DNA of 23,715 nt from Candidatus Micrarchaeota archaeon (GTDB taxonomy: Archaea > Micrarchaeota > Micrarchaeia > Norongarragalinales > SBBD01). Positions 6,072 through 21,440 of the stretch are shown piece by piece. The notes under the pieces were generated by a model. The model ran no database searches. It saw only the letters and a program-made list of their open reading frames with translations, and was not told the origin of the DNA. Within the stretch, counting starts at the first letter, position 1. The number at the start of each line of letters is the position of its first letter. Position numbers and translations under genes: made by a program. The DNA is taken from NCBI GenBank assembly GCA_038046605.1, contig JBBSVW010000027.1, positions 1 through 23,715 on the forward strand. The letters run 5' to 3'.

Positions 6072-6087
6072 AATGGGGTCACGGGGA

Positions 6088-6273
6088 TTTTCTGCCTTGC
6101 CCCTTTCTTTCAAAAAGAAAGGTGCGATGGCTCCGCGCCAAAGAAACAATTAGTTCGCGAATCAAAACCTTTTTCTTTTGCGGCGCCACCGCTTTTCTTT
6201 TTTGACCTAGCAGACAAAGTCTGCGAGGCCGCAAAGAGCCATATAAGCTCTTTTCGGAAAAGAAAAGCAAGGC
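6088..6273 (-). other. tRNA-Trp T-loop intron (position ~59/60, 186 nt)
   Basis: Removal restores the TTCGAAT loop. Relaxed BHB: TTCG-AA|G-CCTTGC pairs with GCAAGG-C(A)GAA-AA|T. The exact junction is ambiguous by 1-2 nt because of A runs. Confidence 0.85.
6094..6151. repeat. 58-bp dispersed repeat, copy 1 (in tRNA-Trp T-loop intron)
   Basis: 57/58 identical to 21011-21068 in the same orientation; the only difference is 6132 T vs 21049 A. Confidence 0.97.
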
Positions 6274-6294
6274 TTCGAACCCCGATCCACAGGT

Positions 6295-6423
6295 ATCTTC
6301 GAACCTTTCTTGGGAAGAAAGCTTCACCAAAGAAAAGTCATTTCTTGCTCGTCATTATATCCGAGCTCCAACATTGCCATCATCGTCCCCGTTTAGGGAC
6401 TCAAAATACCCGAAATTAAGAAT
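6295..6423 (-). other. tRNA-Trp anticodon-loop intron (canonical 37/38, 129 nt)
   Basis: CTCC-AG|A ... GAAG-AT|A BHB-like junction with one mismatch in the 4-bp helix; removal restores the 7-nt anticodon loop. Confidence 0.9.
6349..6412 (-). ncRNA. Intron-encoded box C/D guide RNA for 2'-O-methylation of tRNA-Trp C34 and C39
   Basis: Guide CGGGTATT plus D' TTGA (6404-6401) puts the fifth nucleotide upstream of the box opposite C39. Guide TTGGAGCT plus D CGGA (6363-6360) puts it opposite C34. C' ATGATGG (6383-6377), C ATGACGA (6355-6349). These are the same targets as the known euryarchaeal tRNA-Trp intron guide. Confidence 0.85.
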
Positions 6424-6660
6424 CTGGAGCCTATTGTTCTACCAGGTTATACTATGACCCCATAAAGCCCTTCGAACAATTCCACAAGAGTATGGCAAGA
6501 AGCATTAAAAAACAAAACGGCGATGAAAATAGCTAGGCAATTTCTCATGGTGCGCAAATAGGATTAGGCGCATTTGCAGATTTAGGCTTGGATTTTGGAA
6601 TATGCAATTGATAAAACCCGCCATCATGATTATTCGGATAACTTATTGAAGGTAAACCAT

Positions 6661-7427: not shown

Positions 7428-9527
7428 TCATTTCTCATCGTAGAATTCCAAATACGGCCAAACCCACTGGCTCCAGAACTGCGCAGGGTTCCTAACAGGC
7501 ACGGGAGAAAGCAGATCGGCATTGGGGGCATAATTTTCGCCTTCCGGCAGGGCAAAAAGCTCATGGGAATAAAACATCGCCCCCTCCTCCATTTGATGCT
7601 TGAGGTTGCTTTCAAGGATTTCTGGCGCCCTAGAATCCTTAATCCGGGTTAGGAGCCTAAATAGGGCGGGGCTTTCCCTTGGCCAAATCACCGCCTCATG
7701 GTACTGCTCATCCCCAAGGAAAATGCGGTTTTTTGAGTTGCGGACAAGAATGCCAAAGAGCAATCGTTTCCGGTACACCAGGGATGTTTCGAATTTGGAA
7801 ATCAACTTGGAAATTTCCCCATCTGAAAAAAGCTCGGGCACAAGCGCCGCGGAGTAAATTGAGGCGCTGCATTGGAGATCGCTTTTTTCAAAGCTCAAAT
7901 CAACCATGTCGCAGGCCTTATCCGAAAAGAAAAACGACTTGAAATTAAGCGACGCAGCGGCCTCCATCGCGGAAAATTCCTGCGAAGGGTAAAGCGAATT
8001 GAAATCCCTAAGGAACCGGATCCAGAGGGCATTGATTTCAACTAGGTAATAGTTGGGTCCAAGCGCCCAACCCTTGAATTCCTCAAAATTTTGGGATTCG
8101 CGCAAATGTTTTTCAATCCAGCGTTCAGGCAGCCTGCAGGGAAGCAAAATGCCCCTCCCGAAATGCTCAGCGTGCTTTCTCGAATCGATCCACGAATAAT
8201 TTGCAGGGCAGGCAAGAAGGTAGTTTTCAAGGCGCAAACTCCCTTTCGAGAGGGATTGCAAAAAGGAACGGGCAAATTCCCGAAATTTCCTCGAGAATAC
8301 CTTGTCATCGGAATGCCGCAGGTACGATACCCCGCAAAGAAGGCAAAGCAGGGTAGCATCGGCGGAGGAATAGTCCGTATTTTCGCCGCCTTTTTCCGCG
8401 AGCTTGTTTGGGATAATGCCCTCCCTTTGCATGGATATGGCTGCCAGCAGGAAATTCCTAACCTGCAGCCTTTTCATTTTGTGGAAGATATCGAAATTCT
8501 CATAAATCCCAAGCAGGGCGTCCCGGAACCATATGTTCCTAAACCAGAATGCACCGGCATCGGGAGCAACCACATCTCCATTTGCGAATTCGAATGCCTC
8601 AAGAAGGCCATAAAGGCGGCCCAGTATGTCGCGATGCGCGCTTTGGGAAAGGGCGCTTTTTTTCCTAAGAGGGCGGAGGAATGTTTTTTCCAGGCGAGAC
8701 ACCTTGGCAATGATTTTTTTTTCGTCGTGCGCCTTAAGCTCCTTGGACGGGGAATTTTTTTTATTGCTGGAGGGATAGAATGAAATTGCCGCGCAGCCTT
8801 TTGGCATCAAAAGTGAAATTGTCCCCGGAATGAACAGCGTTCGTTCCTCGCCTTGGAATTTCAATTGCCCTTGCGCGATATGGCGGCTTCCGGAGCCTAA
8901 TTTGTAGAACCAGTGCTGGTGATTGGGCGCCTGGGAAAAAGAAGTGAAATTTTTACTGTGCAAAACCATGCCTTTGCCCTTCCGCTCAACCGCAAGCCCT
9001 TGGTGGATTTCCGAAATTTTGTAGCCGGATGGATCGGAAGGGGCGTACATATGGCGGATATCGAATAGGGCAAGGAGGTCAATGGATAGGCCCTTGCCAT
9101 GAATGCCGGAAACCGAGTATGTGATTTCAAGCATTGGCAATTTCGAAGAACGGTAGAGGTAATACTCCACCTCGAGGAGGGCGCCGGATAGCTCTTCTTT
9201 AAATCCGCCGGTTAGGGAGTAAGTGTAAAGCGCCTTCCATGGGAAGATGCGCACATTTTTTGGGATGGCGAGCAATGTTACGCCCCCATTTTTTATGCGG
9301 AATGCAACGCCATCAAGCAATTTCCAGTTTTCTTTTCCAAGTATTGCGCAAAAGCCCTCGTAGGGATAGTCGCGGTTTGGGATGGTGTATTCACCAAGGG
9401 CCACTGACGCTGCGCTTTGGGAAAATTCGGAATGCGAATTGCGGAGGATGGAGCGCACGCTCCTTGCAAATCCGAAATCCGGATTTTCCTTTGGATCCAA
9501 GTCAATGAAGAGGTTTTTTGGGTTCAT
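7428..9527 (-). CDS. Glycogen debranching enzyme / amylo-alpha-1,6-glucosidase (archaeal GDE_N + GDE_C type)
   Basis: DAGAFWFRNIWFRD, GIIPN, YSSADATL, SWID, VEINALW, YHEAVIWP, ELF, QFWS match the GDE C-terminal motifs (AG..WF...W.RD, TWMD, YHNGTVWPW, QAWS). Confidence 0.85.
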   Translation of the reverse strand: MNPKNLFIDLDPKENPDFGFARSVRSILRNSHSEFSQSAASVALGEYTIPNRDYPYEGFCAILGKENWKLLDGVAFRIKNGGVTLLAIPKNVRIFPWKALYTYSLTGGFKEELSGALLEVEYYLYRSSKLPMLEITYSVSGIHGKGLSIDLLALFDIRHMYAPSDPSGYKISEIHQGLAVERKGKGMVLHSKNFTSFSQAPNHQHWFYKLGSGSRHIAQGQLKFQGEERTLFIPGTISLLMPKGCAAISFYPSSNKKNSPSKELKAHDEKKIIAKVSRLEKTFLRPLRKKSALSQSAHRDILGRLYGLLEAFEFANGDVVAPDAGAFWFRNIWFRDALLGIYENFDIFHKMKRLQVRNFLLAAISMQREGIIPNKLAEKGGENTDYSSADATLLCLLCGVSYLRHSDDKVFSRKFREFARSFLQSLSKGSLRLENYLLACPANYSWIDSRKHAEHFGRGILLPCRLPERWIEKHLRESQNFEEFKGWALGPNYYLVEINALWIRFLRDFNSLYPSQEFSAMEAAASLNFKSFFFSDKACDMVDLSFEKSDLQCSASIYSAALVPELFSDGEISKLISKFETSLVYRKRLLFGILVRNSKNRIFLGDEQYHEAVIWPRESPALFRLLTRIKDSRAPEILESNLKHQMEEGAMFYSHELFALPEGENYAPNADLLSPVPVRNPAQFWSQWVWPYLEFYDEK

Positions 9528-20845: not shown

Positions 20846-21003
20846 ATTGATCAGCTTTACTTATCTGAAAATAAGGGTTAATAAGCGTGGCGAAAAGGTG
20901 CAAAAAACAGGCAAATGGGGAGAGGGATTGAATGGATGAACGCGGCCAGTATCGCGCCTCTTTTCCACGCTCAAAGGAATAAGAATAAATGGGGGCGCTG
21001 AGA

Positions 21004-21113
21004 TTTGAACGCCTTGCCCCTTTCTTTCAAAAAGAAAGGTGCGATGGCACCGCGCCAAAGAAACAATTTGATTTGCGAATTAAATAGCTTCATTAGCGGC
21101 GCTTAAGGCAGGC
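21004..21113 (-). other. tRNA-Pro T-loop intron (position 58/59 or 59/60, 110 nt)
   Basis: Removal restores TTCAAAT; intron ends pair (GCCTGCC / GGCAAGGC); GTTCAAA occurs at both junctions, so the exact boundary is ambiguous. Confidence 0.85.
21011..21068. repeat. 58-bp dispersed repeat, copy 2 (in tRNA-Pro T-loop intron)
   Basis: 57/58 identical to 6094-6151. Confidence 0.97.
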
Positions 21114-21150
21114 TTTGAACTCAGATCAACAGCTCCCAAAGCTGTCAGCA

Positions 21151-21236
21151 TGCCGGATCCCCTTTCTGTTCTCCCAAGACAAAAGCCCTTTTCTTTGAAC
21201 CCAAGGGCCTTTCTTTTCCGGGAAAAGAAAGGGGCT
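21151..21236 (-). other. tRNA-Pro D-loop intron (position 21/22, 86 nt)
   Basis: BHB-type junction CTGG-TA|A ... CCGG-CA|T, with central helix CTGG/CCGG and intron stem CCCCTTTCT/AGAAAGGGG. Confidence 0.88.
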
Positions 21237-21440
21237 TACCAGGTTGGCCCACGCCCCCAAAACCTTATCATTTGGGGAATGGGATTTTTTAAGCGCTTTG
21301 AATGCTTAAAAAATGCATAAAATGGCGCGGATAGCTAAAATTGGCATTAGGGCGCAAGGTTACAATTAGGGGAATGAATGCATTATCGCCAAACGAAGAA
21401 AAAATATAAAAAAAGGGAAAGAAGAAAGAAAGGAAAAGGC

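Follow-up and report, generated by a model that had tools for sequence, protein, structure and literature searches.

A duplicated T-loop sequence around an intron of an archaeal tRNA-Pro(UGG) gene and the palindromic element family that shares the intron's right arm

How introns arrive in archaeal tRNA genes is unsettled, and a lineage of Micrarchaeota with heavily interrupted tRNA genes offers a testable system. The question is raised in concrete form by its tRNA-Pro(UGG) gene, where an intron in the T loop lies between two copies of the 7-nt sequence GTTCAAA. An earlier note on this DNA, made from the letters alone, read the repeat as a target-site duplication that doubles as the splice motif, and the locus as a possible snapshot of intron birth. 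The stretch analyzed (the window) is 23,715 nt long and spans positions 1 to 23,715 of contig JBBSVW010000027.1 in a Candidatus Micrarchaeota genome (GCA_038046605.1, named G000 herein). This genome has 1.64 Mb in 106 contigs, a G+C content of 46.8%, and a completeness of 90.7%. Contigs from groundwater metagenome runs contain the stretch; neither spliced nor circular forms appeared among them. The one contig that came from an RNA library is from a relative whose T-loop letters differ.

The tRNA-Pro(UGG) gene (20990..21258, 269 nt) and all of its parts lie on the minus strand, with three exons and two introns. Exon 1 (21237..21258) holds the 5′ strands of the acceptor and D stems and the D loop; in the relatives G001 and G004 the gene continues past this site with the same letters and no D-arm intron. 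The D-arm intron that follows in G000 (86 nt, 21151..21236) belongs to a repeat family named B. In its central helix, CUGG pairs with CCGG beside the bulges UA|A and CA|U, and its hairpin loop contains a third GTTCAAA (21194..21200), a loop motif conserved in family B. Exon 2 (21114..21150 in register 59/60) carries the 3′ strand of the D stem, the anticodon arm with UGG, the variable loop, the 5′ strand of the T stem, and the T loop to A59. Its last seven letters are the 5′ copy of GTTCAAA (21114..21120), read as G53 to A59. The T-loop intron has 110 nt, at 21004..21113 in register 59/60 or, equivalently, 21011–21120 in register 52/53. It opens with the left inverted-repeat end of the element, GCCTGCC (21107..21113), which forms the intron-side helix beside the 5′ cut and resembles the ends of other family copies. 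A conserved right arm of two hairpins (21011..21069) ends in GGCAAGGC at 21018-21011, and the intronic tail is the 3′ copy of GTTCAAA (21004..21010), in the place where other family members have a tail complementary to the T loop. Exon 3 (20990..21003) consists of U60, the 3′ strands of the T and acceptor stems, and the discriminator A.

The exact duplication described in the earlier note was thus confirmed at 21120-21114 and 21010-21004. Read on the minus strand, the insert between the copies is 103 nt long, and its inverted ends GCCTGCC and GGCAAGGC pair over 7 bp with one A bulged, also as described. Neither ARAGORN nor Rfam recognized the unspliced gene in the raw window; the one Rfam match at E ≤ 1, to a ctRNA, was meaningless and was discarded. 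When the 86-nt intron (21236-21151) and the 110-nt intron were removed, ARAGORN identified a 73-nt tRNA-Pro(tgg) with a normal cloverleaf, which is the behavior of a BHB tRNA intron inside a tRNA gene. The MFE fold of the full 269-nt precursor (-112.3 kcal/mol) combines the cloverleaf with two long intron hairpins. Because GTTCAAA is repeated, eight cut registers (52/53 to 59/60) give an identical product. As had been proposed, a geometry of four helix and three bulge positions puts both cuts at an equal offset in each repeat, so that excision restores the T loop.

For a random junction, a model of two geometric runs (p = 1/4) gives a probability of about 4e-4 for a summed identical run of at least 7; this is our own calculation and not a tool result. 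Junctions in G000 were surveyed by spliced alignment, with long gaps allowed, using 25 reference tRNAs from a less interrupted relative (G016). Of the 27 intron calls obtained, about 24 are distinct, and some have noisy placements. Several rows were mis-assigned, such as those of the Pro_tgg and Ser_tga references, and the survey was used only for the distribution of junction repeats. A repeat of 7 occurred solely at the Pro(UGG) T-loop junction, followed by values of 4, 3, 3, and 3 among the surveyed introns. At the 11 other T-loop copies in G000, taken from the survey and by eye, the junction repeats were 2–4 nt and mostly AA(A)T shared by bulge and loop. Duplications of 6–7 bp, whose lack in other family members the earlier note had set as grounds for refutation, were absent from the other introns checked, where no repeat exceeded 4 nt.

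Some of the likeness between the two copies comes free, since the T-loop tails of the family must carry two A's before U60, and UUCA and UGAA agree by rule at their first and last bases. This could favor chance, or convergence from splicing selection alone. However, the middle two bases of the direct copy are those that break pairing, and the identity reaches seven of seven with a further match at the preceding G position, in the only such junction of about 24 and at the chance level estimated above. The GTTCAAA repeat is real, and chance, like splicing-driven convergence, is an extremely improbable source of it.

In a BHB motif, the last 6 nt of the 5′ exon and of the intron each comprise a 4-nt helix strand and two bulged bases, and the two 4-nt strands are reverse complements. 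A direct repeat generally makes no BHB, because the central helix needs the reverse complement. At the Pro(UGG) T-loop junction, two of four central pairs form in either register (G-C, U.U, U.U, C-G; or U-A, U.C, C.U, A-U). A strict BHB with two 3-nt bulges and a 4-bp helix is therefore absent, the spacing fits, and the junction is at best a relaxed motif. Its MFE fold contains an open 6 × 8 internal loop (-42.1 kcal/mol), and forcing the central pairs gives -36.2 and -33.1 kcal/mol, a cost of 6–9 kcal/mol. The idea that the repeat doubles as the splice motif thus holds for the spacing but not for the pairing, and the fold lacks the helix. Three of 11 other family junctions are likewise not predicted to form the central helix, one of which is fully complementary. 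Nearest-neighbor energies miss even a fully complementary AU-rich helix, so folding cannot decide whether a junction is cleavable.

A genome-wide scan for the split-T-arm pattern produced 196 rows, mostly chance matches in coding DNA, from which 15 rows in tRNA loci were picked by hand and scored for Watson-Crick plus G.U pairs. Seven junctions have four of four pairs (Gly GCC, C70, Leu CAG, Gln, and the relatives' loci L030, L039, and L047), and six have three (Ala, Trp, Val CAC, Asn, L031, and the second copy at C89). Pro UGG of G001 has two, equal to that of G000. The C62 junction has one pair in the tested 59/60 register and four in 58/59 by eye. Also by eye, Pro GGG and C90 pair at four of four positions and the CAU tRNA and Tyr at three. 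A tail complementary to the T loop at three or four of the four positions is present in at least 15 other T-loop introns, and tails covary with T loops (UUCA-UGAA, UUCG-CGAA, and UCCG-UGGA). Complementary tails occur in either orientation of the element, which indicates that the tail is a property of the locus, not of the element. Pro(UGG) is the outlier, with a tail that copies the T loop instead of complementing it. Judged from these junctions, the GTTCAAA repeat is evidently no requirement for splicing.

The D-arm intron tells a similar story of complementarity. Its junction sequences CTGGTA and CCGGCA had been taken for a degenerate echo of the duplication; this interpretation was not upheld, as they correspond to the central helix CUGG/CCGG and the orthologues have CCAG or CUAG, a near-palindrome complementarity.

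The enzyme encoded by this genome bears on whether a relaxed junction would be cut. The sole splicing-endonuclease gene in G000 has 388 aa with two catalytic-domain matches. This open reading frame aligns over its full length to PDB 4FZ2 (E = 3.5e-126), an entry cited in a paper on the three-unit epsilon2 enzyme of ARMAN-2 (PMC3488258). Its homologs are labelled Candidatus Micrarchaeota, Micrarchaeia, or Norongarragalinales. By its sequence, the G000 endonuclease is of the three-unit epsilon2 type. The genome therefore encodes an endonuclease of the type that cuts relaxed motifs, an activity predicted for this protein. The epsilon2 enzyme of ARMAN-2 is reported to have cut a relaxed T-loop intron at 59/60 in vitro (PMC3239211; PMC3488258). 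In the same organism, 56% of tRNA genes are described as disrupted, and tRNA-Pro has introns at 53/54 and 59/60 (PMC3239211). Standard tools called just 16–24 tRNAs in G000, a low count in keeping with the interruption of most tRNA genes at unusual places.

The Pro(UGG) gene looks to be in use. Its exons are identical throughout the genus, and its synteny with the SRP54 gene is kept. Across the seven genomes, the neighboring SRP54 gene has a DNA identity of only about 72–80%, in contrast to the invariant exons. A second Pro(UGG) gene was not recognized in the 90.7%-complete G000 assembly, and tRNA-Pro(UGG) reads CCA codons. Because no second CCA-reading gene was recognized and the junction state is kept in two species, we infer that the Pro(UGG) T-loop junction is cut, including the position of the cut. 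Pro(UGG) would then be an essential tRNA whose splice junction remains a raw duplicate and not an adapted complement, and it provides a concrete test of how far the motif of epsilon2 endonucleases can be relaxed.

The same gene was compared among relatives. The T loops of G000 and G001 carry the hairpin element, and G001 repeats GTTCAA with the same tail. Four genomes (G002, G003, G005, and G006) have a family B intron at 53/54; G003 has a further intron at 59/60, which is 22 nt long and has a perfect motif. In G004, the intron lies at 58/59, is 20 nt long, and uses G53-C56 in its central helix. The D-arm intron occurs at the same site in five of the seven genus genomes (G005, 92% identical; G003, 83% identical) and is absent from G001 and G004. 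Among four genomes from other families of the order, the Pro gene is uninterrupted in three, and G017 has a 53/54 intron. An empty Pro(UGG) T loop was not found in the seven genus genomes. Two DNA runs contain joints between 21009 and 21120; these have unknown letters between them and short sides (22 nt), and they were not counted as an empty site. The T-loop introns of G000 and G001 agree in 104 of 119 alignment columns and differ in 15; the left part accounts for 39 matches in 49 columns, and the right arm plus tail for 60 of 64. Judged by eye, the intergenic flanks of the two genomes seem too divergent for alignment. A shared intron between diverged flanks indicates that the insertion was not recent. 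The T-loop intron has been either constrained or exchanged between lineages.

The T-loop intron is one copy of a larger family. The basic element is about 85–105 nt long and consists of a short left end, a small central hairpin, and the conserved two-hairpin right arm. Its inverted ends are 7–8 bp, and longer copies have extra modules. Over 58 nt, the right arm is 98% identical to positions 6094–6151 in a tRNA-Trp gene of the window; the nhmmer match of the Pro(UGG) right arm has E = 7.5e-19. This tRNA-Trp(CCA) gene (6074..6461, minus strand) has a long intron in the anticodon region and, in the T loop, an intron of the same family whose right arm lies at 6094–6152. As the earlier note had cautioned, the Trp copy lacks a clean duplication: its tail instead pairs with the T loop at three of four positions. 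A profile built from 11 right arms gave 24 matches in G000 at E < 1e-3, at about 22 loci. The element is present in at least 15 tRNA genes of G000 and in both orientations. The right arm lies on the tRNA strand in eight intron copies (Pro UGG, Trp, Gln, the CAU tRNA, Pro GGG, C62, C90, and the D loop of Gly UCC) and on the opposite strand in seven (Ala, Thr GGU at 37/38, Asn, Leu CAG, Val CAC, Tyr, and C70), with tRNA assignments made partly by eye. Strong matches span the whole model, and the palindromic echo on the other strand is short and much weaker (E about 1e-3), which makes the orientation assignments reliable.

As in transposing introns of the Thermoproteales type, insertion positions vary: copies interrupt at least 12 tRNAs in the T loop, Thr(GGU) at 37/38, and Gly(UCC) in the D loop. 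As in a MITE, the element is short, noncoding, multi-copy, and bounded by terminal inverted repeats, ends that may be kept by selection on the RNA helix. A 271-nt query that includes exons had matches in 33 of 41 genomes (G000 and 40 relatives), with 10–22 matches in each of the six other genus genomes. The 68-nt right arm was identified in 10 of 301 genomes sampled across the phylum, all from one order, and was not found in the remaining 291. Reverse splicing at the RNA level was considered as a source of the copies and rejected. Insertion of this kind would fix a single orientation; antisense copies are present, and no reverse transcriptase was found in the 90.7%-complete assembly.

A local direct-repeat scan of G000 identified five loci where exact 18–20-nt repeats of tRNA 3′ parts flank small inserts. 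At four of them (C9, 22964/23161; C57, 10077/10230; C68, 6014/6105; and C89, 36687/36888), a complete tRNA is followed by an insert that ends in the element right arm and then by a second copy from about G53 to the discriminator. The fifth (C26, 10931/11012) contains a different small hairpin element. Six further cases behind tRNAs were found in relatives, with exact repeats of 12 to at least 18 nt, and G007, from another genus, has one such duplication around a 47-nt insert. The target-duplication idea, which the other intron junctions did not bear out, is rescued by these long duplications behind intact tRNAs.

One of these loci could be compared in its filled and empty states. Among the seven genus genomes, the 3′ end of tRNA-Pro(CGG) is doubled in G000 alone. 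The DNA found after the second copy in G000 lies directly behind tRNA-Pro(CGG) in G004 and G002, so that this element copy has an intact empty site and the presence/absence pattern of a MITE. Filled and empty sites differ by an insert of about 131 nt and a duplication of about 21 nt. The composite insert of about 130 nt that follows Pro(CGG) in G000 recurs almost unchanged in G002, where it lies behind a Lys(CUU)-like tRNA; in both places, it is flanked by the 3′ end of the local tRNA. The duplicated stretch was therefore copied from the target and not borne by the element. The element right end abuts the second copy in every case behind a tRNA, and the copies differ little, within the first 3–6 nt beside the element end. 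Differences clustered at this end could reflect imprecise joining rather than a clean target-site duplication. Selection towards pairing was considered as their cause; several (an extra C, CT, and replaced bases) do not improve pairing.

From these comparisons, DNA-level insertion with target duplication is supported by the multi-copy family, its two orientations, the duplications elsewhere, and one locus seen both empty and filled. The part of the earlier note that proposed an intron gained by DNA-level insertion stands with them, but the locus is not a snapshot of birth, as G001 shares the intron and GTTCAA.

The layout behind intact tRNAs also suggests another origin of the 7-nt repeat, as the remnant of a longer G53-A73 duplication behind an intact tRNA. 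Later deletion of the T-stem 3′ strand and acceptor strand of the first copy would have made the intron obligatory. The right arm in Pro(UGG) is indeed followed by a complete G53-A73 copy, exactly as at C57, C9, C68, and C89, and long duplications are frequent (five loci in G000, six in relatives, and one in another genus). The tail of the second copy at C89 is able to pair with the first T loop at three of four positions, and this route has no lethal intermediate. However, such an intermediate for Pro(UGG) was not seen in the seven genus genomes, and the left inverted end meets A59 cleanly, as in ordinary intron copies, whereas inserts behind tRNAs are without that end. We regard a remnant origin as unlikely.

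The repeat could also be secondary: an uninterrupted T-arm copy, such as the one behind Pro(CGG), or a diverged allele would have replaced an older complementary tail through gene conversion or recombination. Right arms are more alike within a genome (98% over 58 nt for Pro and Trp in G000) than between orthologues (60 of 64 for Pro in G000 and G001), which suggests exchange among copies. At C93, an element copy stands before a minus-strand gene whose first ten codons are doubled, one set beginning at 9461 and the other at 9306. Each set encodes MVEMKQREFN, and the two differ only at synonymous sites. This suggests that the C93 duplication arose by recombination with a diverged allele and not by a staggered cut. 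The identical exons across species would also permit allelic recombination at Pro(UGG). A conversion tract would nonetheless need to stop exactly at the tail, replacement of a good helix by a poorer one would be selected against, and G001 shows the same repeat state. An overwritten tail is accordingly given a low probability.

The 90.7%-complete assembly was searched for enzymes that could move the element. It gave zero matches to tyrosine integrase, reverse transcriptase, Cas1, or TnpB. Three DDE-type genes were identified (two DDE_Tnp_1 and one rve); none has element-matching ends nearby, and an autonomous MITE partner was not found in this assembly. Classical transposases make duplications of fixed length. 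The duplications here are 7 nt at Pro(UGG), 2–4 nt at other T-loop copies, and 12 to about 21 nt behind tRNAs, unlike the fixed length at every copy expected of a MITE. Among the T-loop copies checked, the junction duplication is carried solely by Pro(UGG) of G000 and its G001 orthologue. Possible mechanisms are staggered breaks in which one site is fixed near 52/53, repair with template switching, and recombination involving foreign alleles.

Site-specific integration is another candidate, in which a 7-bp overlap matching the T loop exactly would have been the crossover site of the element or of a larger integrase-bearing parent. Inverted repeats surround 7 bp both in T-arm DNA and in the joined ends of the element, and joined ends would place 8-bp inverted repeats around GTTCAAA as a mimic of the T arm. 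The copies behind tRNAs have direct repeats of the tRNA 3′ part at both borders, and such repeats are described as a hallmark of integrated archaeal elements (PMC3293823). Against this, no integrase gene was found in the element or the assembly (zero Phage_integrase matches at 90.7% completeness), and the duplicated segments are exact copies from five or more different local tRNAs, which would require a separate attachment site in each element copy. Site-specific integration is highly unlikely on this evidence.

The leading explanation, which we hold to be slightly more probable than not, is that GTTCAAA is a true duplication of G53-A59 and that it derives from a small, non-autonomous palindromic DNA element inserting into the T-loop part of Pro(UGG). 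Under this reading, the gene would be transcribed into the 269-nt precursor. The inverted ends of the element would form the intron-side helix and the T stem the exon-side helix, with the two GTTCAAA copies facing each other between them. The epsilon2-type endonuclease would cut both strands in the same register (58/59 or 59/60), and a ligase would join the exons and restore the T loop.

A wider reading, which we offer tentatively and consider doubtful, is that the family represents an archaeal counterpart of eukaryotic introners. A palindromic element would break tRNA genes beside G53 and copy 7 to about 21 nt of the target, and the product would be spliceable at once: one helix would come from the inverted ends and the other from the T stem, and the duplicated T loop would provide a spacing suited to a tolerant epsilon2 endonuclease. 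Subsequent point changes would convert UUCA to UGAA, and the copies behind intact tRNAs would be harmless first stages. Both end states (UUCA and UGAA) and the one-step forms UGCA and UUAA are present in the genus. If true, this would be a concrete arrival route for archaeal tRNA introns.

Literature on Micrarchaeota tRNA introns and on MITEs in archaeal tRNA introns was searched, and no description of such an element family was found. A recent census of Asgard archaea (2026 preprint) is described as having found no general arrival route for tRNA introns. Work on direct repeats near intron borders (PMC11782384) is described as covering only four archaeal introns and one fungal intron. Already known are the T-loop intron sites and the tolerant epsilon2 enzyme, from ARMAN-2, and the presence of similar introns in different tRNAs, from Thermoproteales. 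The wider pattern (a family restricted to one order, both orientations, target duplications, and an empty site) is a more valuable result than the Pro(UGG) junction itself.

The T-loop introns of ARMAN-2 (Candidatus Micrarchaeum) come from the same phylum and are processed by the same type of endonuclease as in G000 (Fujishima 2011, PMC3239211; Hirata 2012, PMC3488258). The pair of introns reported for ARMAN-2 tRNA-Pro, at 53/54 and 59/60, is exactly the pair found in Pro(UGG) of G003 (PMC3239211). The ARMAN-2 introns are short (13 and 25 nt), however, and in the portions of these papers available to us they are not described as a repeated family, nor are inverted ends, two orientations, or a flanking duplication mentioned (PMC3239211; PMC3488258). 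Intron transposition in Thermoproteales is similar in that highly similar introns occur in unrelated tRNA genes at differing positions, with insertion described as tolerated solely where a splicing motif can form. Those introns are short, and the mechanism is left open in the account cited (PMC4033280). The family in G000 combines its varied insertion positions with antisense copies and duplicated targets. We know of no report of inverted ends, antisense copies, target duplications, or empty sites for the Thermoproteales introns.

The model proposed for Caldiarchaeum (Sugahara 2012, PMC3293823) also has a direct repeat of a tRNA fragment flanking an insert and ties intron gain to mobile DNA and recombination. 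The insert in that case is described as 1.8 kb long and recombinase-encoding, with a repeated 5′ fragment and the intron inside the attachment site (PMC3293823). The inserts here are instead 47–200 nt long and gene-free, the 3′ part is repeated, and no recombinase was found. Eukaryotic introners are described as non-autonomous elements with terminal inverted repeats whose insertion makes an intron and whose target-site duplication supplies part of the splice signal (Gozashti 2022, PMC9860276). They form spliceosomal introns in protein genes, with duplications of 3–9 bp (PMC9860276), whereas the intron at Pro(UGG) would be read by a protein endonuclease that recognizes RNA shape, and its direct repeat half fits the signal. 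As an analogy, the eukaryotic introner is the nearest of the known systems.

Non-canonical introns of 30–230 nt hide most tRNA genes in the source genome (G000). When the whole genome was scanned, ARAGORN reported 16 tRNAs without introns, or 21 tRNAs with its intron option, and Infernal returned 24 tRNA matches, many of them partial.

One gene in the window, tRNA-Trp(CCA), spans positions 6074–6461 on the minus strand (388 nt) and contains two introns. The first is a long insert 3' of the anticodon; words resembling C and D boxes occur within it, and a search against Rfam produced no match for this insert. The second is a copy of the main palindromic element family, located in the T loop, that is ~225 nt long and carries extra nested modules. 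T-loop-like sequence also occurs within introns of the second family (family B). A conserved hairpin loop in these introns, found at 21194–21200 in the window and at loci L004, L005, and L023, holds a word resembling a T loop, namely GGTTCAAAG or a sequence close to it. The tRNA-Pro(UGG) gene has three occurrences of GTTCAAA because the loop of its family-B intron carries this word. T loops in several tRNAs of the order read UCCGAAU or UCCGAUU, with a C at position 55 in place of the nearly universal U; these include tRNAs on contigs C61, C70, and C90 of the source genome and tRNAs of a less interrupted relative, G016.

In a third small repeat family of the source genome, a C-rich end follows a long G/C-capped hairpin, and members are positioned immediately downstream of tRNA 3' ends. 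Copies were identified at C26:10931–11031, downstream of C9:23161, at C61:9230–9330, and at C106:10850–10900. On C26, the hairpin element lies between two identical 20-nt copies of the tRNA-Leu(UAG) 3' end.

Copies of the main element and repeats of gene fragments were also identified elsewhere in the source genome. On C93 (9300–9470), a main-element copy lies upstream of a protein gene whose start region is doubled, with the two versions 155 nt apart. Both encode MVEMKQREFN and differ only at synonymous sites; the doubling may mean that a diverged allele recombined here, or that the protein gene has an intron. A tandem arrangement on C68 (6040–6200) contains two successive units, each with a right-arm-like module and a tRNA 3' fragment, and the second fragment is similar to a different tRNA. 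There were no matches to the tyrosine recombinase family, including a Xer-type gene, in the whole assembly, which is 90.7% complete. On C9 (50879–51065), 24 nt of the tRNA-Thr(UGU) 5' end are duplicated exactly, 163 nt upstream of the gene. This arrangement resembles the 5'-fragment repeat described for Caldiarchaeum, a known case in which a tRNA-fragment repeat flanks inserted DNA.
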